Source: an uncultured Pseudomonadota bacterium (GTDB lineage Bacteria; Babelota; Babeliae; Babelales; JAUPTZ01). From it: 46,272 bases of DNA. The position numbers were made by a program, and so were the translations under genes. The DNA lies in NCBI GenBank assembly GCA_964429275.1, contig CAYSBJ010000002.1, positions 346,459 to 392,730 of the forward strand. Reading direction: 5' to 3'. Positions 16,864 through 36,796 of the stretch are shown here, in pieces. The notes beneath the pieces were generated by a model. It did not search any database. It had not been told where the DNA came from and saw only the letters and a program-made list of their open reading frames with translations. How positions within the stretch are numbered: the first letter of the stretch is position 1; each line of letters begins with the position of its first letter.

Positions 16864-17289
16864 CTGCTTCTTCTCTTCGGCTTCGAGCCAATCTCGTATT
16901 TTCATTAAAGCCTTGAGGGCATGCTCTGATATCTCATAACACCCTTTTGCAAGGGCGGTAACAATCGGGTCGGTCTCTTCCTGATACTGCTTAATTTTCG
17001 CTATCTCAGCAAGTATCTGCTCTTTTAACAAAGGAATTGGCAGCTCGTGTTTCAAAAAAAATCCATGCGCAGCATCAAAGCGCTCCAAGATATCGGCATT
17101 TACACGTATTTGCGGGGCATAATGCACATGCCATTTATAAAAATCAATAAGAAGACGTCTCACTTCGCGAAAACACTGATTCGGAAAGGTGTAATGCCTC
17201 GAAGCAGATTTCCCCTTAAAAAAACGGCCTTTCACTGCCACAAACCCAGACCCCAACAACAAAGATATCAATAAAGCTTCCTTTAGCAT
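16849..17289 (-). CDS. Hypothetical exported helical protein, paralogue of 17381..17842
   Basis: MLKEALLISLLLGSGFVA; FDAAH..F; C-terminal AEEKK shared with the neighbour. Confidence 0.7.
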   Translation of the reverse strand: MLKEALLISLLLGSGFVAVKGRFFKGKSASRHYTFPNQCFREVRRLLIDFYKWHVHYAPQIRVNADILERFDAAHGFFLKHELPIPLLKEQILAEIAKIKQYQEETDPIVTALAKGCYEISEHALKALMKIRDWLEAEEKKQSSLK

Positions 17290-17340
17290 TACCATTCCCT
17301 TTACATAAATTATTGCCACTCACTGTTATCGTTCAAAAGA

Positions 17341-17381
17341 AGCGCACTGTAGAACGATTTAAGAAATTGCTTAAGCGAGCT
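17341..17381. repeat. Direct repeat copy 2 (41 bp)
   Basis: AGCGCACTGTAGAACGATTTAAGAAATTGCTTAAGCGAGCT. Confidence 0.9.
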
Positions 17382-17842
17382 TATTTCTTCTCTTCAGCGA
17401 TTGGCTCCCAACGTGTCTTTAACTGCCCTAGAACCTCTTGAATTTTTTTGCTCAAGCCAAAAATGCGGGAGAAGAGCACAGTAAAGGCTTCAGCTTCGTC
17501 AGAATTTTTCTGCTGAGAAGTCAAAAATCGCTCTGAAAAAGCAGCTGCATAAAACGATGCATACTTCTTTTGAAAGCTATCTATACTTGCTAAACCTTCC
17601 TCAATAGTCTCAAAAAAACAACCAGAGGACATAACGAACTTATTATGAGCATCATCAAAGTCATACCCAAATTGAAGTAGCAAAGGGCTTCCGAAATTGA
17701 ATAGGCCAGATTTTATCCGATCAGTCCTTAATATATCCCATGATTCTTTGCACTCCTGTATCTCCCTATCTAGCGCCACCACATCCGCTGCCACGAGCCC
17801 TGATCCCATTAACAAAAATCCCAACATCACATGCTTAAACAT
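17381..17842 (-). CDS. Hypothetical exported helical protein
   Basis: MFKHVMLGFLLMGSGLVAA signal; GGAGG RBS; FDDAH..F; ends AEEKK. Confidence 0.75.
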   Translation of the reverse strand: MFKHVMLGFLLMGSGLVAADVVALDREIQECKESWDILRTDRIKSGLFNFGSPLLLQFGYDFDDAHNKFVMSSGCFFETIEEGLASIDSFQKKYASFYAAAFSERFLTSQQKNSDEAEAFTVLFSRIFGLSKKIQEVLGQLKTRWEPIAEEKK

Positions 17843-17909
17843 CGCCTTATTCCTCCGTATTGGTTATTAACGCGGCAGAGAATAGTACTTTAAGGAAACT
17901 GAAGGCAAC

Positions 17910-17940
17910 AAAAAAGGCTCCCACAAGGAGAGCCTTTTTT
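17910..17940 (-). terminator. Intrinsic terminator after secD-tRNA-Met
   Basis: AAAAAAGGCTC...GAGCCTTTTTT inverted repeat. Confidence 0.8.
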
Positions 17941-17945
17941 GATTC

Positions 17946-18022
17946 TGGTAGCGGCGCAGGGATTCGAACCCCGGACCTACGGATTATGATTCCGCCGCTC
18001 TAACCGACTGAGCTACGCCGCC
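17946..18022 (-). tRNA. tRNA-Met (CAT), elongator type
   Basis: GGCGGCGTAGCTCAGTCGGTTAGAGCG-GCGGA-ATCATAA-TCCGT-AGGTCCGGGGTTCGAATCCCTGCGCCGCTACCA; 77 nt, encoded CCA, paired G1-U72, no initiator GGG/CCC. Confidence 0.92.
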
Positions 18023-18032
18023 AAAAAGTTAT

Positions 18033-19655
18033 TTAGAAGTTAATAGTTTTACCACCACGAAGATCGGTAACCCACATAATAATCGAACGCAAAAAGAAAA
18101 TGCCTGCGATTAATGTGGCTATTATACCAGCCATTAACGTAACTGCAAAGCCTTTTACTGCAGGACCACCAAATTTAAATAAAATTAATCCACCAAGGAA
18201 GGTTGTAATGTTAGAATCCAGGATCACAGTCGTTGCACCATTAAACCCACCTTCAACTGCTTGACGAAATGAAACTCCCTGCTTCAAGTCTTCACGAATA
18301 CCTTCATAGATAAGAATAGAAGAGTCAATCGCCATACCAATCGTCAACACCATTCCCGCAATACCAGGCAATGTGAGCGTTGATTCAAAGTAGGAAAGGA
18401 ACAACATAATCAAAAACATATTGTAAGCAAGTGCCAAAGTAGCCAAAAGGCCCAACAAGCGATAGTAAAATACGCTGAATAACAGCACTAACAATAAACC
18501 AACAAGGCAAGCCAGAAGTCCGCGGTCAATTGAATCTTGTCCTAACGAAGCACCAACACGGTTTTCCTGCTCAAAATTGAGCGGGGCCATAAGCGAACCG
18601 GAGCGGAGTACCAATGCCAGGTCACGAGCTTCTTCAGCGCTGTACTGGCCGGTAATGTAGCCGCTTGAGCCGATAGCACCTTCGATACTCGGCGCGCTGT
18701 ACATAACATCGTCAATCACGATACCAAGTTGACGACCGATGTTATCACCAGTCAAACGCTTAAATTGAGATGCACCGCTGCTATCAAGAGAAAAATCTAC
18801 TTTCATGCGACCCATTTCATTGTAGCCAACACGAGCATCAACAATATGATCACCAGTTACATCAGGATAGGCTGAGACCAAGTACCATCCACCTTCATCG
18901 CCTTTGCGGCCAGGAATAACCATTTTATCGCTCGGCAAATCACCATCAAATTCATCAAGAAGCGCATCCTTACTGCCTGCCGTCTTTTGCACAATCTTAA
19001 ACTCAAGCATCGCCGTTTGCGTAATCAACGCTTTCACGCGAGCCGGGTCATTTACGCCAGGAAGCTGTACTACAATCTGGTGATCGCCGTGACGCTGTAC
19101 AATAAGACCGGCTACGCCAAAACCGTTCAAACGGTTGCTCAACACGCTTACGGCTTGATCAACCACAGAGTTACGCATTGTTTGTTCTTCGGCGGTATTC
19201 AAACCAATAATTACCGCTGTATCCGCTTGTGTTACGGTGTTGCCAGGGTTGTGTTTTTTTACAAGATAGAAGCATTCATTCGCTGCAGTGTCATTCTCAA
19301 ATACATAGTGAAGCTTGCCACCTTCAAGACGAGACTTGATCGGATCATGCTTTAACTCTTTTTTAAACAACGCATCAAGATCACGCTGCTCTCTGCCAAG
19401 TTTGTTTTCGATCGCTTTTTCTACGCCAACGCTTAATACAAAATAGGTGCCGCCTTGAAGATCAATACCAAGCTTGATTCGAGGCATATAGAGAGATTTG
19501 AAAAATGTTTTGAAATCACCACGCATCAGAGAGGCATAGCGCGCCTGGCCGGTTTCGGTAGTACGAATTGAGACGAGGAAATAGGTGCCAACAACAGCAG
19601 CTAAAACCCAGGCCATGAATTTAGATACAATCAAACGACTCAAACTGGTATTCAT
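18033..19655 (-). CDS. secD: Protein translocase subunit SecD
   Basis: LGIDLQGG, IVVQLPG, LALVLRSGSL, LTLPGIAGMVLTIGMAIDS, VKGFAVTL; AAGGAG RBS before ATG 19655. Confidence 0.95.
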   Translation of the reverse strand: MNTSLSRLIVSKFMAWVLAAVVGTYFLVSIRTTETGQARYASLMRGDFKTFFKSLYMPRIKLGIDLQGGTYFVLSVGVEKAIENKLGREQRDLDALFKKELKHDPIKSRLEGGKLHYVFENDTAANECFYLVKKHNPGNTVTQADTAVIIGLNTAEEQTMRNSVVDQAVSVLSNRLNGFGVAGLIVQRHGDHQIVVQLPGVNDPARVKALITQTAMLEFKIVQKTAGSKDALLDEFDGDLPSDKMVIPGRKGDEGGWYLVSAYPDVTGDHIVDARVGYNEMGRMKVDFSLDSSGASQFKRLTGDNIGRQLGIVIDDVMYSAPSIEGAIGSSGYITGQYSAEEARDLALVLRSGSLMAPLNFEQENRVGASLGQDSIDRGLLACLVGLLLVLLFSVFYYRLLGLLATLALAYNMFLIMLFLSYFESTLTLPGIAGMVLTIGMAIDSSILIYEGIREDLKQGVSFRQAVEGGFNGATTVILDSNITTFLGGLILFKFGGPAVKGFAVTLMAGIIATLIAGIFFLRSIIMWVTDLRGGKTINF

Positions 19656-19794
19656 ACTATCTCCTTGTGTGATTATTTGTACAAACTCGTGCAACGAAAC
19701 TTTACTCCGTTCTACAGCAGCGCATTTGTACACAAAAAATACTGAATTGCCCAGAGTCTACAAAATTATTTTTCATATGCAAACGAGGATGAGA

Positions 19795-19989
19795 GAAAAA
19801 GAGAATATCGCAACTGGATTATTGGTCCGCTGTCGCCCCTAACGGGGTCTATGGCGTGACACTTGCTTTGCACTTGCCCTGCGGGCTGCGTTACACACTG
19901 GCGGTTATACTACGGCTTTTTTGAAAGCTCTACTACACCGTAGTAACATCTCGTGCGTTTTATGCGCACGCAGCGTCTCCGAAGACGAG
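19795..19989 (-). other. Hairpin-dense non-coding element downstream of tRNA-Leu (possible ncRNA or REP-like cluster)
   Basis: Stems CGTCT/AGACG, CGTGCG/CGCACG, TACTACGG/CCGTAGTA, GCCC/GGGC, CCCC/GGGG, CCGC/GCGG. Confidence 0.35.
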
Positions 19990-20074
19990 TGGTGCCGAGA
20001 GTCGGACTCGAACCGACATGAGTAACCTCGCTGCCCCCTTAAAGCAGTGCGTCTACCAATTTCGCCATCTCGGC
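19990..20074 (-). tRNA. tRNA-Leu with anticodon AAG
   Basis: GCCGAGATGGCGAAATTGGTAGACGCA-CTGCT-TTAAGGG-GGCAG-CGAGGTTACTCATGTCGGTTCGAGTCCGACTCTCGGCACCA; 85 nt, long variable arm, A73, CCA. Confidence 0.92.
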
Positions 20075-20100
20075 ATGTATGTCAAATAAAACGAGGCCAG

Positions 20101-20129
20101 AATGTAGCAGACAACAGAAGGGATTGCAA
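20101..20129 (-). promoter_or_regulatory. sigma70 promoter for tRNA-Leu
   Basis: TTGCAA-17 nt-TACATT with TGn extension. Confidence 0.6.
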
Positions 20130-20157
20130 ATTTTCTGTACAAAAAAACGCCTTAATC

Positions 20158-21978
20158 TTATTTTTTATGTTCAGTATTTTTTAATAGTGCTCCATCGAGC
20201 GGCACCTCCGGCTCCTTTTTCTCTATGCCACGCCCCGCAGATGCACCAGAACGCCTCTGTCTCACTTCTTTCCCTTGCCACCAGGCAGTAGTTTTAGAAA
20301 TAACACGCCGCACAGCCGCATACGATTTCCATGCAAACCGCTTAAAGAGCTCAAACCAGCTTAATTCTCGCTCATTTCGTTCATAAGCCCGAGTAATTTC
20401 TTCTTTTAGTCTTTCCTTGGTATCGAGCTGCATAACGCGCTCAGCTTCCAACCGATCCAAGAGAGCCTCCTTCATATCGATGATCTCTCGTTGAGCTATC
20501 AACTCTTGAACCTTTTCGTACGATTGGTTCCGCTCATGTTTAATACGTTCCAACACGGGATCATCTTCGACAAGGCTTGCCGGAATATCTGGTAACCTCA
20601 AAGGATCATCAGCGCCAATAACATGCCTAAACCAATCACGGGCTCCGACCCAAAAGCAATACAAAATATGCGTAACCGGAGCACAAACATCAGAAATCAT
20701 CGCGTAAACAGCAGAAATAATATCATAAGGCACCTCAAAAACTGTCCCTTGCACCATATTTTGCATAGAGTTTGAGGTTACGCCTTGTTTTTTACTTTTT
20801 TTTTTACTCTCGTCGTCAGAGTCATTATCAAGTACGTCCTCATCATCTTGAGCAGGAGTCACAGCATTCTTATCTGCAACTGAAGTATCAACGCCGGTTT
20901 CCTTCTCCGCTTTTGGTTCAGCGATAGGCGGAAGTTTCTTAATAATAGCAGACAAATCACTTTGTTTTTTGCTCAAATTATCAAGTATGCCCTTAACCAC
21001 CACTATTTGCTTCTTGGCGGCATCTAACGCATCGTCGACAGCCTTTGCCTGACCAGATGTGCCAACAATTGATCCTTGTGCGGCTACAAGCTTTTGGGAC
21101 TCAGCCTGGATGTCTTTGTATATACTTGCTGCTACTGTCGGCTCAAGCACTGTATTCAACTCATTCCGTTTTGAGCTTATTTTTACTACCAAATCCCCAA
21201 GCTCAAGAACATAATCAGATAAAGCCTGACTAGCGTCAAGCAGAGCTTTCTCTTTCTCCTGAAGGGCTTTCTTTTCAGTTTCAAGCTTATCAATAAGTGT
21301 GGACAGCTCAACAATCAATGCGCTCGCAGAAATATCAGCTACCGCCTTTGAGTGGATACCTCCAGCTATATGATCTTTTGCTTCGCGCAACTGTTCAGAT
21401 GCATCGCCTTGAATCAATCCGGCGGCGCCATACACAGAGTTCAATTCGCCGTTAAAGGTCAAATACGTAACCTGGCGATCAGACTTCATTTTTTCTAATG
21501 CGGTCAAAGCCTCTTGCGCTTTTGATTCATCATCCGCAGACTTTTCATATAGATCTTTCTGCTCGGCAGCTCCTTGAACAGTGGACGGTGCAAACAGCGG
21601 CGCAGCATCAATGGATTGCACCTTTATATCTTCTGGCTCTGCGTTTTTAGCTTCGGGAGCTGGCACTGCCGAAGGAGGAGTTGCAGGAGCTGGAGTAGCT
21701 GTTGATCCGGAAGACACGGCCGTAGTTGCCGTACCATGAACTACTGAAGCTGGCGGGCCTACGGTAACTGAAGGAGTAGGAGCTGGTACCGACGCCGGAG
21801 AAACACTTGCAGTTGCTGCGGTGCTTGTCGATGCTATCGGCATCAAGGAAGACGTAGAAGAAGTTGCCGTTGCTGGCACCTCAGTATTAGGCGGCACCGG
21901 AGATGCCGTAGCCCCTCTCATCTCTACCGATACAACACTGGCTAATCCAGCAACCAAAACCATCAACATGACGTTCAT
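20158..21978 (-). CDS. Hypothetical secreted coiled-coil protein with Pro/Ser/Thr/Ala-rich linker
   Basis: Signal peptide, low-complexity N-region, long heptad helices, acidic patch, amphipathic Trp-rich helices. Confidence 0.8.
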   Translation of the reverse strand: MNVMLMVLVAGLASVVSVEMRGATASPVPPNTEVPATATSSTSSLMPIASTSTAATASVSPASVPAPTPSVTVGPPASVVHGTATTAVSSGSTATPAPATPPSAVPAPEAKNAEPEDIKVQSIDAAPLFAPSTVQGAAEQKDLYEKSADDESKAQEALTALEKMKSDRQVTYLTFNGELNSVYGAAGLIQGDASEQLREAKDHIAGGIHSKAVADISASALIVELSTLIDKLETEKKALQEKEKALLDASQALSDYVLELGDLVVKISSKRNELNTVLEPTVAASIYKDIQAESQKLVAAQGSIVGTSGQAKAVDDALDAAKKQIVVVKGILDNLSKKQSDLSAIIKKLPPIAEPKAEKETGVDTSVADKNAVTPAQDDEDVLDNDSDDESKKKSKKQGVTSNSMQNMVQGTVFEVPYDIISAVYAMISDVCAPVTHILYCFWVGARDWFRHVIGADDPLRLPDIPASLVEDDPVLERIKHERNQSYEKVQELIAQREIIDMKEALLDRLEAERVMQLDTKERLKEEITRAYERNERELSWFELFKRFAWKSYAAVRRVISKTTAWWQGKEVRQRRSGASAGRGIEKKEPEVPLDGALLKNTEHKK

Positions 21979-22005
21979 ACGTTCTCCAAGCTTTACTGCG
22001 TTATT

Positions 22006-23181
22006 TTATTTAGCTTCTTCGGGCGCAGGCCCTTTTACTACAACTGGTTTTGATTCATGCCCTACCAAAAGATTTTGAATGGGGGATAAAACCCAATTTC
22101 TTATTACTTGACCCGCATGCGACAAAGCATGCATTAACGGATACGTAAACTGGCCAAATGATGAGGCGCTCTCAGTAGATTTTGCTTCAGCAGCAGCTTT
22201 TTCAAGTTTTTCAACACGAGCAGCAAGCAATGACAATTCACTTTTCATTTTATCGACTACTATTTTTAAAGCCTCCAGATCTTTCGTTAGTTTATTGGTA
22301 GCTGCCACAGATTCGGAGCTTGTTGCATCAGATACCACCGGCGTAGATTTTTTTATAACCACTGGCTTTTCAACCTCATCGTTTCCATCTACTTCACTGT
22401 CAGTTGCCTTATTATCCACCACCTTGCCAAGATCTTTCGTAGACTCATTAATCTTATCAAGCTCTTTAGACACTTCCGCCAATGGATCCAATTTTTCTAC
22501 TTTTGGCATAGGTGCCAGTACTTCTGGCTCTGGCTTAATAGTATTTTCACTCAAGCTTGCATCAAGCGCCGCTAACTTCACTTTATTTTCTGTAGAAATA
22601 GCGGGAGGCCCTGCTACAACAGCAGGTTTGACCTCTGGCTTTACGACAGCTGACGCGGGTAAATCATTTGTAACAATTGGCTTGGCAGCAACAGGCGGCA
22701 GCGATTTTGTGGCAAGAGTTGAAGTCGATACCGGCAACACTGGAGCTGCAACAGAAGCTGGCTTCACTATGTCAGGAGTTGGCGTTGCTACTACAGGATC
22801 TACCGCTACCGAAGAATCATTTTGTGCAAAAAGGTCCTCGCCCACACCAACTGCTGCTGACGTTGATGGAGTCACTGGTAAAGAAACTGCTGCCGGCTTT
22901 GAAATGGCAACTGGAGCTGACGCAGGAGAAATCGGTGTAGAAACTACTGGCGGAACTACAACTGGTGCCGCTTTTGAAGCAATGGGAGTATTCGCCACAG
23001 CCGCTACTGGAGCCGACTGCGGAGCAATATCTTTATTATTTTGTAAAAAAAGATCTGCACCCATACCAGAAATGGCCGAGGATTGCGCAGAAGCTTGAGT
23101 ATCTTGCCCAGATAATTGCGAAGATATAACGGCACAAACAATAAAAAGTGCAAACCGCACCCCAAGATTTATTAACATCAT
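22006..23181 (-). CDS. Hypothetical secreted Pro/Ala/Val-rich protein with C-terminal coiled coil
   Basis: Signal peptide; repeated GADLFLQN/GEDLFAQN; LTKDLEALKIVVDKMKSELSLLAARVEKLE. Confidence 0.75.
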   Translation of the reverse strand: MMLINLGVRFALFIVCAVISSQLSGQDTQASAQSSAISGMGADLFLQNNKDIAPQSAPVAAVANTPIASKAAPVVVPPVVSTPISPASAPVAISKPAAVSLPVTPSTSAAVGVGEDLFAQNDSSVAVDPVVATPTPDIVKPASVAAPVLPVSTSTLATKSLPPVAAKPIVTNDLPASAVVKPEVKPAVVAGPPAISTENKVKLAALDASLSENTIKPEPEVLAPMPKVEKLDPLAEVSKELDKINESTKDLGKVVDNKATDSEVDGNDEVEKPVVIKKSTPVVSDATSSESVAATNKLTKDLEALKIVVDKMKSELSLLAARVEKLEKAAAEAKSTESASSFGQFTYPLMHALSHAGQVIRNWVLSPIQNLLVGHESKPVVVKGPAPEEAK

Positions 23182-23259
23182 AATGGTCTCCAGATATCGT
23201 AATTCAACCTAATAGCCGAGACCTTAACGCTACCGCACCTATAAATGCAATCTTTTTAT

Positions 23260-24474
23260 CTATTTTGCTGCCACTGATGGCGTTGCTGGAGCGGCTATCG
23301 ATGGCGGCGCACTTGGCACTAGCGCAGTGCTTACTGGGGACGTTACTGGGGCCGGCGCGTCATTTGGTGCTGAAGCTTCTTTTTTTGCGCTATCTCCGGT
23401 CTCATCTTGAAGGTGATCTTCTTCCAGCTGAGGCTGCGGGCGACGACGACGCGCCCTGACTGCTGGCGCTGGTTTCTGCCAAAAACCCATAACCCAGTCG
23501 ATAGGAGCCCACAACCATTGACTCAGGCTGCTCATAACCAGGCGAGGAAACTCCATCACCAATTCAGTCCAGGACTTTTCTTTTTTAATTGGCTTACGGC
23601 GGCGCTTTACCGGCGCCTCCTCTGCTGCTTCCGCTGTTTCCTGCGTAACGGTCTCCAGAACATCTGGCTTTTCTTTTTTACTTAAACGCAACGTACGGTG
23701 CGAAACAACAAGCCCGCGCTGCTCAAGCGCTTCTACTTGCTTATTAACTTGCTCAATTTGTTTTTCGATAGTAGCAATAACATTCTTAAAATCAGCGAAA
23801 AGCGTTTCATCCAAATACTTTTTGATAGAGGCTACTTTATCACCAAAACCTTGAATAACGTAATAAGCATCGCATGCCTTTTGGTCATCAACCATCCACC
23901 ACATCTCATTTAGCTTTTTAGTGCTTTGTACGGCCACATCACTCGCATCTTTGATCTGCTTGTCAACCGCCTTGAGCCGATCAGTAATCGAAGTATCAAG
24001 CTCGGCAATAGACTTCATATCAAGATTGAATTGTTCAAAATCACGATCAAGCCGTTTAACATCCTGCTCAATTGCCTCTATTTGAACGTCATAGAAATTA
24101 ATTGGTGCATCATCGCTTTCGCTGCGCTTGCGCGCTTGCGCAATACGACGATCTTTCTCTGCCTGCGCATCTGCCTTAAGATCGGCAATCAGTGTGCCTA
24201 GCTTGCCCCGGCCAAATCCTTTAGCACCGTAAAAGTCATTTACTTTTTTATCAATTTTTTCAAATTCGCTAAAGAACTGCGTGCGTGACTTCTTAACTGC
24301 CTGTGCATCTTTTTGTATTTGCTCATTAGCAAGTTGTGCTTCTTTAATCCACGCTCGCTTTTTTACCCAATTACCCCGTTCTCCCGGCGCAAGCTGAACC
24401 GGTTGCGCAGTCGAAGCGCAACCGATATCAGAAAAGGTACCAAACGCGAGAAGAAAAAATAATATATTCATCAT
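23260..24474 (-). CDS. Hypothetical secreted coiled-coil protein
   Basis: Signal peptide (possible lipoprotein Cys), GNWVKKRAW, long coiled coil, basic patches flanking a Trp-rich helix. Confidence 0.8.
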   Translation of the reverse strand: MMNILFFLLAFGTFSDIGCASTAQPVQLAPGERGNWVKKRAWIKEAQLANEQIQKDAQAVKKSRTQFFSEFEKIDKKVNDFYGAKGFGRGKLGTLIADLKADAQAEKDRRIAQARKRSESDDAPINFYDVQIEAIEQDVKRLDRDFEQFNLDMKSIAELDTSITDRLKAVDKQIKDASDVAVQSTKKLNEMWWMVDDQKACDAYYVIQGFGDKVASIKKYLDETLFADFKNVIATIEKQIEQVNKQVEALEQRGLVVSHRTLRLSKKEKPDVLETVTQETAEAAEEAPVKRRRKPIKKEKSWTELVMEFPRLVMSSLSQWLWAPIDWVMGFWQKPAPAVRARRRRPQPQLEEDHLQDETGDSAKKEASAPNDAPAPVTSPVSTALVPSAPPSIAAPATPSVAAK

Positions 24475-35575: not shown

Positions 35576-35629
35576 CGTATACTAACGCTGCTTTATTACA
35601 GTTTATGCTAAGTGTACAAGGAGTCTTCT

Positions 35630-36796
35630 ATGACCATGTTAAAACGATTAGTGCTTTCTTCTCTAGTGATGTGCCCTGCACTGCCGCTTGTTTCAGCACC
35701 AAAACCAACGGTTGACGAGATCAATGCTAAAGTAAATGCTATCAATTCAGAAATCGCAACCCTTAAGAACGGCACCGGCAAGCTCGATGTCGTCACGCGC
35801 GATATGATTGCTCTTGGCGCCGCGATGGGTACCTACGGTACAACACCGGCTCCTGTTAATCCTGCCGTTCAGCCATTTTTTACCCTGAGCGTGCCGCAAG
35901 AAGCGCAAGACATGGCCATCGCTCTTGGCACCATTACTTTCATGAAATGGACCGCTAAAGACGTTACTGTTTGCCGTAGCAGCGCCATCAATGGCTCCGC
36001 TCACGCAAGCAAGTATGTAAAACTAAATGGTGCTCTTACTCAAGTAAAGTCAGAAGAGTACTTTGGCCGTGCTGATGGTTTCACAAAATGCGTTCATAAA
36101 GGTTACAATGCTCGCGCCGCAGTGCCGTTGGCTGAAACCACCGCACGTATCTTGCAAGCAACAGCAAGCCCAACTGATATGACACAAGTAAAGTTCATTG
36201 ACCTGTACAACCACTACACACCAATTTGGCTCCAAGCAAAGAGCGCAAACGAAGTGCGTGAGTTCGTTGAAATGGCACAAATGGATCTTATGAGTGCCAC
36301 TGTTGATCCAACAGTCCGTCCAAAAGACTACCGCCAAGCACTTATCATCACCATCGAAAACGATCCGTTGCTAAGTTCACTTGATGAAAACTTAATAAAT
36401 GAACTTGGCGATATCTTCAGCGTTGGTAGCATGGCAAACAACACTCTCCGTGAGTTCATCTCAGAGGAAAAGGCGGCATTGATTGAATTGCTTGCTGAAA
36501 ACAAAAAAGCTCTAGACATTAACCCATCATTCCTAGAAGGCTTGTTCGAAGACCTTAATGAACAAAACTTCTACTTCAATCCAAAGCTCATGGCACGCGA
36601 TGTGTTGAAAAACATCTTTACGTTAAAGCACATTTCACAAAAGCTTACCGGATTTGGTCTTGGACTGCTTGCTGTGTACATGTGGAAGAAGTGGACTGAA
36701 AAGAAAAAAGAAGAAGGTCCTGAAAAGCTTTCAGAACAAAATAAACTTCTTGTTGCAGCACTCTCAGAAGCAATTAAAAAGCCTGCGACAGCATAA
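35630..36796 (+). CDS. Hypothetical exported protein with C-terminal membrane anchor
   Basis: AAGGAG RBS, signal peptide, short coiled coil, C-terminal TM then Lys-rich tail. Confidence 0.82.
   Translation: MTMLKRLVLSSLVMCPALPLVSAPKPTVDEINAKVNAINSEIATLKNGTGKLDVVTRDMIALGAAMGTYGTTPAPVNPAVQPFFTLSVPQEAQDMAIALGTITFMKWTAKDVTVCRSSAINGSAHASKYVKLNGALTQVKSEEYFGRADGFTKCVHKGYNARAAVPLAETTARILQATASPTDMTQVKFIDLYNHYTPIWLQAKSANEVREFVEMAQMDLMSATVDPTVRPKDYRQALIITIENDPLLSSLDENLINELGDIFSVGSMANNTLREFISEEKAALIELLAENKKALDINPSFLEGLFEDLNEQNFYFNPKLMARDVLKNIFTLKHISQKLTGFGLGLLAVYMWKKWTEKKKEEGPEKLSEQNKLLVAALSEAIKKPATA

Follow-up and report, generated by a model that had tools for sequence, protein, structure and literature searches.

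Repeated replacement of tRNA-Leu(GAG) by tRNA-Leu(AAG), a probable substrate of TadA, in the phylum Dependentiae

Introduction

The universal bacterial tRNA with adenosine at position 34 (A34) is tRNA-Arg(ACG), the natural substrate of TadA, which is converted to the inosine-containing ICG form. A tRNA-Leu(AAG) in place of tRNA-Leu(GAG) is established in Lactobacillales, and inosine at position 34 (I34) has been shown for it in Oenococcus, Streptococcus pyogenes and Streptococcus mutans (PMC13249217, PMC11472039, bioRxiv 10.64898/2026.05.15.725136). Editing of this tRNA to I34 by TadA is complete in S. pyogenes (PMC11472039) and in S. mutans (PMC13249217). The streptococcal enzyme acts on UAMG, with M standing for A or C, within the loop consensus YUAMGRA (positions 32-38), and the streptococcal tRNA-Leu(AAG) is not edited in vitro by the TadA of Escherichia coli (PMC11472039). 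Engineered A34 tRNAs for four-fold codon boxes are tolerated in unmodified form in E. coli (bioRxiv 10.64898/2026.05.15.725136). Beyond Lactobacillales, listings drawn from GtRNAdb place tRNA-Leu(AAG) in some Mycoplasma and Prochlorococcus (PMC13249217, PMC11472039, bioRxiv 10.64898/2026.05.15.725136), the only two groups that are named by a 2026 paper asking whether leucine recoding via tRNA-Leu(IAG) exceeds Lactobacillales (PMC13249217).

Here we describe a tRNA-Leu(AAG) gene in a 46,272-nucleotide stretch of DNA (hereafter, the window) from a metagenome-assembled genome (MAG) of Dependentiae/Babeliales. An original prediction, made from the letters of the window, had interpreted this gene as the product of a GAG-to-AAG switch, independent of that in Firmicutes, that was accompanied either by broadened TadA specificity or by wobbling of unmodified A34. 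On balance, we favor the reading that this tRNA replaced tRNA-Leu(GAG) in a Dependentiae lineage and that its A34 is deaminated to inosine by TadA.

Results

The tRNA-Leu(AAG) gene and the genome that carries it

The window lies in contig 2 (393 kb, with the genome's own composition) of an assembly that comprises 1,207,998 bases in 8 contigs and is rated 98% complete; hereinafter, G-numbers denote species genomes of the phylum, G000 being the window's genome, and f- and g-numbers denote families and genera. Among named genome records, the closest TadA loci, with 93, 77 and 71% identity, come from Candidatus Dependentiae and Candidatus Babeliales MAGs. The three large contigs have a G+C content of 46%. 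Contigs 4-7 of G000 are short (4-13 kb), contain 60-70% G+C against 46% elsewhere, carry no tRNA genes and are probably bin contamination. Given that the window encodes a TolC-like OEP protein, the lineage looks diderm, in agreement with the original prediction. Upstream of the tRNA gene, positions 20158-24474 of the minus strand hold consecutive open reading frames (ORFs) of 606, 391 and 404 amino acids, with signal-peptide-like starts, stretches rich in Ala, Pro, Ser and Thr, and coiled-coil-like regions; neither these three ORFs nor the 394-amino-acid ORF at 35612-36796 matched any Pfam family.

ARAGORN identified 36 tRNA genes in the genome, 2 of them in the window, and a leucine set that consists of CAA, UAA, UAG, CAG and AAG. 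Leu-GAG was not found in this 98%-complete genome either by ARAGORN or with strict and relaxed sequence patterns, and the only other A34 tRNA is Arg-ACG, such that the genome-wide tRNA check suggested with the original prediction came out in its favor. The rRNA-linked Ile-GAU and Ala-UGC genes are absent from the assembly, which is therefore not closed. In the arginine CGN box, Arg-ACG is accompanied by Arg-UCG, with no Arg-CCG, both in G000 (contigs 2 and 3, outside the window) and in G023; in G000, the two are close copies of one another.

The tRNA-Leu(AAG) gene occupies positions 19990..20074 of the minus strand, as called by ARAGORN and supported by Rfam family RF00005 and by orthologues in relatives, and encodes a class II tRNA of 85 nt, including an encoded CCA. 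RF00005 matches positions 19993-20074 over its full length (model positions 1-71 of 71) and scores 49.3 bits where 29 is the gathering score (E-value, 1.2e-07), with zero non-canonical pairs flagged. The acceptor stem consists of 7 perfect pairs out of 7, the discriminator base is A73, a leucine identity element, and the variable arm is long, about 13 nt; together with the leucine anticodon, these are the features of a class II tRNA-Leu. The anticodon stem is CUGCU/GGCAG, with a U.G pair at 31-39, and the loop UUAAGGG (U32 U33 A34 A35 G36 G37 G38; 20042-20036) contains the anticodon AAG at 20038..20040, where A34 is position 20040 (T on the plus strand). In orthologues from the same genus, the T-stem pairs vary in a compensatory fashion. 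The predicted stem, loop and anticodon thus coincide with the ARAGORN and Rfam readings, and the cloverleaf is intact as claimed.

Support for the base at 20040, the subject of another suggested check, comes from Logan contigs (not reads) of three further samples. The contig of run X2 (483 nt) covers 19850-20226 with 0 differences, that of run X7 covers 19990-20052, also with 0 differences, and that of run X10 covers 19990-20226 with 14 differences, all at or beyond 20098, that is, outside the tRNA; none of the three has an alternative letter at 20038-20040. A metagenome scan for the genus-specific form of this tRNA, with A or G permitted at position 34, returned three contigs only, all of them DNA from JGI metagenomes and all with AAG. 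Because the same base recurs in contigs of three further samples, AAG is not a sequencing error, and we consider the observation confirmed. No RNA runs matching positions 17000-23000 of the window were found.

The original prediction gave the tRNA its own promoter, a claim that stands in part. A consensus scan detected zero promoter-like sites on the minus strand upstream of the tRNA. By eye, a possible weak promoter, TTGCAA-17-TACATT, can be placed at 20101..20129 on the minus strand; it agrees with the consensus at 8 of 12 positions, below the scan threshold. The first hexamer, TTGCAA, does not vary across 5 congeners, and the second reads TACATT or TAAGTT; all 5 species of the genus keep about 60 nt of the sequence upstream of the tRNA, and the sequence farther upstream diverges. 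The 606-amino-acid ORF on the same strand ends 83 nt upstream of the tRNA gene, so that read-through transcription is possible as well. On the other side, a 3' trailer with a GC-rich hairpin (19955..19989, minus strand) recurs in the genome after further tRNA genes and after the tmRNA gene: about 40 nt right after the CCA are nearly identical behind Leu-AAG, Leu-CAG, Leu-CAA, Arg-UCU, Arg-CCU and the tmRNA gene (contigs 1-3 of G000). The shared trailer may serve as a terminator or as a 3' processing signal, or it may be a small repeat. Many other tRNA trailers in G000 start with a CCTTCGC-like word.

Distribution of AAG and GAG across Dependentiae

Among the 11 best orthologous loci from relatives, 10 have AAG and 1 has GAG, which makes 11 of 12 when the window's own locus is counted; the 10 AAG loci from relatives span five families, that of the window among them. 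We extended the comparison to 261 species genomes of the phylum, all from one order, using sequence patterns. The strict Leu-AAG pattern matched in 68 of the 261 genomes (48 of the 189 high-quality genomes and 41 of the 145 genera; 2 hits for the reversed-pattern control), and the strict Leu-GAG pattern in 88 (1 hit for the control). With the D arm relaxed and the T arm added to the pattern, 179 of the 261 genomes match for either AAG or GAG, and the reversed control gave none; this pattern adds Leu-AAG in G155 and G160, bringing the total to at least 70 of 261. Thus, about one in four known Dependentiae species has Leu-AAG, which occurs in 12 of the 21 families of the phylum. AAG is the sole state seen in f1, f4, f7, f8, f15, f17, f18 and f20, and is mixed with GAG in f3, f5, f12 and f19 and even within three genera, g42, g89 and g133.

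In the tables, which were read by hand, none of the 261 genomes matches both strict patterns. G169 contains, beside the usual Leu-AAG, a divergent tRNA-Leu(GAG)-like match to the relaxed pattern (contig 22, 13795-13847); it is the only bin with both states, and the GAG-like match, which is on another contig than Leu-AAG, may be located on a foreign one. The AAG and GAG genes share a common backbone and are one step apart at position 34, as in G163 compared with G161, G162 and G164. Accordingly, the predicted GAG-to-AAG switch is a real replacement, with no Leu-GAG left in the window's genome, and its proposed independence of Firmicutes is borne out by the backbone, which is that of the sister Dependentiae Leu-GAG with a single G34A step.

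Neither CUY-reading tRNA was found in some genomes. In the near-complete G189 (g102) and G045 (g33), the search recovered Leu CAA, CAG, UAA and UAG and neither GAG nor AAG, and in their genera, 0 of 8 (g102) and 0 of 6 (g33) genomes match the GAG or AAG patterns, strict or relaxed, such that both genera as a whole seem to have lost the CUY-reading tRNA. The full number of genomes with neither GAG nor AAG, about 50 by a hand tally, is an upper bound because the patterns miss some GAG genes, for example, the divergent one in G208 and the one in G023, which was caught by the relaxed pattern only. Leu-UAG is present in 247 of the 261 genomes. Judging from G189 and G045, tRNA-Leu(UAG) can apparently serve the CUY codons in this phylum, and I34 is therefore not needed to explain the use of CUC.

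A separate case is g74, in which 3 of the 4 genomes (G136, G137 and G138) show Leu CAA, UAA, AAG and CAG, and neither Leu-UAG nor Lys-CUU; CUA accounts for 0.11 of the leucine codons in G136. If true, this absence of Leu-UAG would mean that an inosine tRNA is paired with a C34 tRNA in the manner of Arg. The Lys-CUU and Leu-UAG genes are adjacent in G000, G135, G023 and G189; in G135, the pair is on a 3.2-kb contig, and the only homologue of a flanking gene in G136 is at a contig end. An assembly gap being as likely as a deletion, the loss of Leu-UAG in g74 was set aside as a proxy for the reading of CUA by inosine.

Number and direction of the switches

To place the two states on a phylogeny, we built a tree of RpoB for the window's genome and 30 others (IQ-TREE quick search, LG+G4, 1453 columns), which were picked to include mixed pairs and are not a random sample. 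A clade with 100% support unites f4, f15, f20, f7, f1, f8, f17 and f12. All its early branches have AAG, and its three GAG members are all inside f12, so that AAG is probably ancestral in this eight-family clade, with reversions to GAG. GAG prevails in the other clade, where AAG is seen in G009, G057, G022, G236, G241 and one subclade of f19. On this 31-genome tree, at least 10 G/A changes at position 34 are required, and the well-supported branches alone force 7. The switch is thus not private to the organism: AAG seems to be ancestral to the eight-family clade and has undergone at least 7 gains or losses within the phylum.

A34 was found in two tRNAs

Using a class I backbone pattern, which leaves the class II Ser tRNAs and the Pro tRNAs outside its range, we compared G34 and A34 tRNAs in the 261 genomes. 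The G34 version gave 839 matches in all 261 genomes, and among the 150 matches listed, almost all are Gly-GCC, Val-GAC, Thr-GGU and Ile-GAU. The A34 version gave 201 matches, and all of the 150 listed are Arg-ACG; once C was disallowed at position 35, it produced a single hit in the 261 genomes, inside a tmRNA gene. With the patterns used, A34 is therefore found solely in Arg-ACG and Leu-AAG, as dependence on TadA predicts, and the Leu-AAG anticodon departs from that of the natural TadA substrate, Arg-ACG, at position 35 alone.

The anticodon loops differ between the two states at position 38. All 48 Leu-AAG matches listed have a purine there (46 G and 2 A, the latter in G057 and G211), compared with U38 in about 60, by hand count, of the approximately 100 Leu-GAG matches listed. 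In G057, the Leu-AAG loop CUAAGGA equals the genome's own Arg-ACG loop CUACGGA save for position 35, and the Leu-GAG loop of its congener G056 is UUGAGGG. This pattern is suggestive of inosine and goes no further than that, as related genomes are not independent; there is possibly a decoding reason for purine 38. In the window's genome, the Arg-ACG loop CUACGAA and the Leu-AAG loop UUAAGGG differ at positions 32, 35, 37 and 38. Compared with the streptococcal consensus YUAMGRA, UUAAGGG fits at 32-37 and fails at 38, where it has G, although a consensus derived for streptococci (PMC11472039) may not suit the enzyme of another phylum.

Codon usage

By eye, the original prediction saw CTT as apparently the dominant leucine codon of a strongly biased gene that it placed at 35630..36796. 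CTT accounts for 18 of the 43 leucine codons of ORF 35612-36796, and it is the commonest leucine codon genome-wide, with 0.28 of the leucine codons in 692 ORFs of at least 200 amino acids. CUC is not avoided, making up 0.17 of the leucine codons in the window's genome. We compared the whole genome of the window with 20 others, which were represented by samples of mostly 40 kb (range, 11-43 kb). The ratio CTC/(CTC+CTT), normalized to other codon boxes, has a mean of about 0.78 in the 12 AAG genomes, compared with about 0.73 in the 9 GAG genomes; among these 21 genomes, there is no consistent CUU/CUC shift between the two states, and strand bias dominates within the window. In the long ORFs of the window, CTC is about equal to or above CTT on the plus strand, and CTT is 3-5 times as frequent as CTC on the minus strand. 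Because CTT/CTC follows the coding strand, mutation bias dominates in the window and may hide selection. Codon usage leaves the choice between inosine and unmodified A34 undecided.

TadA

The genome encodes one TadA homologue, a 187-amino-acid ORF on contig 3 that matches PF14437 with 113 bits. It aligns end to end with the solved bacterial TadA structures 7cph, 2b3j, 2nx8 and 1z3a, the first three being its best relatives, and in this sequence alignment, it has the zinc ligands of the CDA fold in the HAE and PCxxC motifs and the C-terminal helix. A homologue was found in all 28 further genomes searched, and TadA is intact in all 29. In an alignment of TadA from 17 AAG and 12 GAG genomes, no column separates the groups, and the best-scoring columns fall in variable loops; G162 (AAG) and G163 (GAG) have near-identical TadA. 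Hence no visible change in TadA is needed for the switch. The broadened TadA specificity envisaged in the original prediction, if real, would be a property of the whole phylum and not of this lineage.

Discussion

The gene at 19990..20074 would encode a functional tRNA-Leu that replaced tRNA-Leu(GAG). After transcription, the genome's TadA would turn its A34 into inosine, as is required for tRNA-Arg(ACG), and the mature tRNA-Leu(IAG) would read CUU and CUC and could also read CUA, with tRNA-Leu(UAG) and tRNA-Leu(CAG) covering CUA and CUG. Since G34 and I34 decode the same pair of codons ending in a pyrimidine, position 34 would be free to drift between G and A wherever the lineage's TadA accepts a UANG loop, and this equivalence would explain the repeated switches. 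We infer both the deamination itself and the acceptance of A35 and G38 by the Dependentiae TadA.

The strongest competitor of this reading, which we consider doubtful and nonetheless worth weighing, is that A34 remains unmodified. The tRNA would then read CUU well and the other CUN codons weakly, by four-way wobble, CUC, CUA and CUG would be read mainly by Leu(UAG) and Leu(CAG), and G34A would be nearly neutral, becoming fixed through AT-biased mutation and drift in small populations that depend on a host. Such a course of events fits the lack of any TadA residue that tracks the switch, the dispensability of the GAG/AAG tRNA in lineages such as those of G189 and G045, where it is wholly absent, the near-ubiquity of Leu-UAG (247 of 261 genomes), and codon usage that tracks strand bias rather than the tRNA set. 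It is also consistent with the failure of the E. coli TadA to edit Leu-AAG (PMC11472039), with the function of unmodified four-fold-box A34 tRNAs in E. coli (bioRxiv 10.64898/2026.05.15.725136), and with the loop G38, which is outside the streptococcal editing consensus. However, a tolerated unmodified A34 should recur in other four-fold boxes, and the 839 G34 class I matches have no A34 counterpart except for Arg-ACG. Furthermore, the AAG gene is nearly unchanged across eight families, which argues for selection, CUC is not depleted in comparison with the sister GAG genomes, and every bacterial Leu-AAG tested to date carries I34 (PMC11472039, PMC13249217). Should A34 stay unmodified after all, which seems to us a tentative proposition, Dependentiae would be the first large bacterial clade that routinely uses unmodified A34 for the leucine box, with position 34 toggling between G and A, and this would contradict the view that cells keep A34 only when it is masked as inosine.

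Much less probable is an artefact, in which sequencing or assembly went wrong, the contig was binned wrongly or the gene is a pseudogene in decay, with the real Leu-GAG left unassembled. Of the 8 contigs of the source MAG, four do have a foreign-looking G+C content of 60-70%, and the MAG lacks the rRNA-linked Ile and Ala tRNAs, but the same base is present in the contigs from three other samples and in the three metagenome contigs, none of the 68 genomes with the strict AAG pattern has the strict GAG pattern, relatives show compensatory changes in a cloverleaf that is intact here, and the tRNA is inside a 393-kb contig of the genome's own composition. Horizontal transfer of the tRNA from a eukaryotic host or from Lactobacillales is the least credible of all: Dependentiae do depend on eukaryotic hosts (PMC4776705), and eukaryotes do use tRNA-Leu(AAG) (bioRxiv 10.64898/2026.05.15.725136), but the D arm, anticodon stem and variable arm are those of the phylum's own Leu-GAG, one base apart (G163 against G161, G162 and G164), the CCA is encoded, and the trailer is common to other tRNA genes of the same genome.

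Returning to deamination by TadA as the preferred reading, the finding bears on the question of how widespread tRNA-Leu(IAG)-type decoding is, to which Dependentiae add a whole phylum. A search of the literature on Dependentiae together with tRNA anticodons or inosine did not reveal the trait within the coverage of that search, from which most subscription journals are excluded, and the word Dependentiae is absent from the accessible text of PMC13249217 and bioRxiv 10.64898/2026.05.15.725136. The pairs of species with different states within g42, g89 and g133 are natural replicates for asking whether a bacterial TadA must change to accept a second tRNA, and they bear as well on the effect of the switch on codon usage and on the viability of unmodified A34 in nature.

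Among the described systems, unmodified A34 tRNAs, namely Mycoplasma tRNA-Thr(AGU) and the engineered tRNA-ANN of E. coli, resemble the Dependentiae tRNA in combining A34 with a four-fold box and a reduced genome (bioRxiv 10.64898/2026.05.15.725136); in contrast to those systems, Dependentiae retain TadA and Arg-ACG, and no other four-fold box has A34. With tRNA-Arg(ACG), the Leu-AAG tRNA shares U33-A34-N35-G36-purine37, and among the matches listed, most Dependentiae Arg loops are CUACGGA, with the same G37; it differs in having A35 instead of C35 and, usually, U and G at positions 32 and 38 where Arg-ACG has C and A. The closest parallel is the tRNA-Leu(IAG) of Lactobacillales (Streptococcus, Lactococcus, Lactobacillus, Leuconostoc and Oenococcus). 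In both cases, AAG stands in place of GAG and not beside it, the genome encodes TadA and keeps Leu-UAG, and the loop at 33-37, U-A-A-G-G, fits YUAMGRA (PMC11472039, PMC13249217). Unlike Lactobacillales, Dependentiae belong to another phylum and look diderm, and their editing is deduced from genes. A diderm host is not unique to Dependentiae, given that Prochlorococcus is already listed in PMC13249217. Position 38 is G in 46 of the 48 Dependentiae AAG matches listed, in place of the A of the streptococcal consensus, and no CUU/CUC enrichment is seen in AAG compared with sister GAG genomes. Whereas the state is fixed by family in Lactobacillales, it toggles in Dependentiae, with 7-10 changes, including reversions, among 31 genomes. 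The replacement of Leu-GAG by Leu-AAG was thus already known, and what Dependentiae add to it is its occurrence in another phylum that is unrelated to the first, the many switches and reversions that took place independently, and the G38 of the loop.
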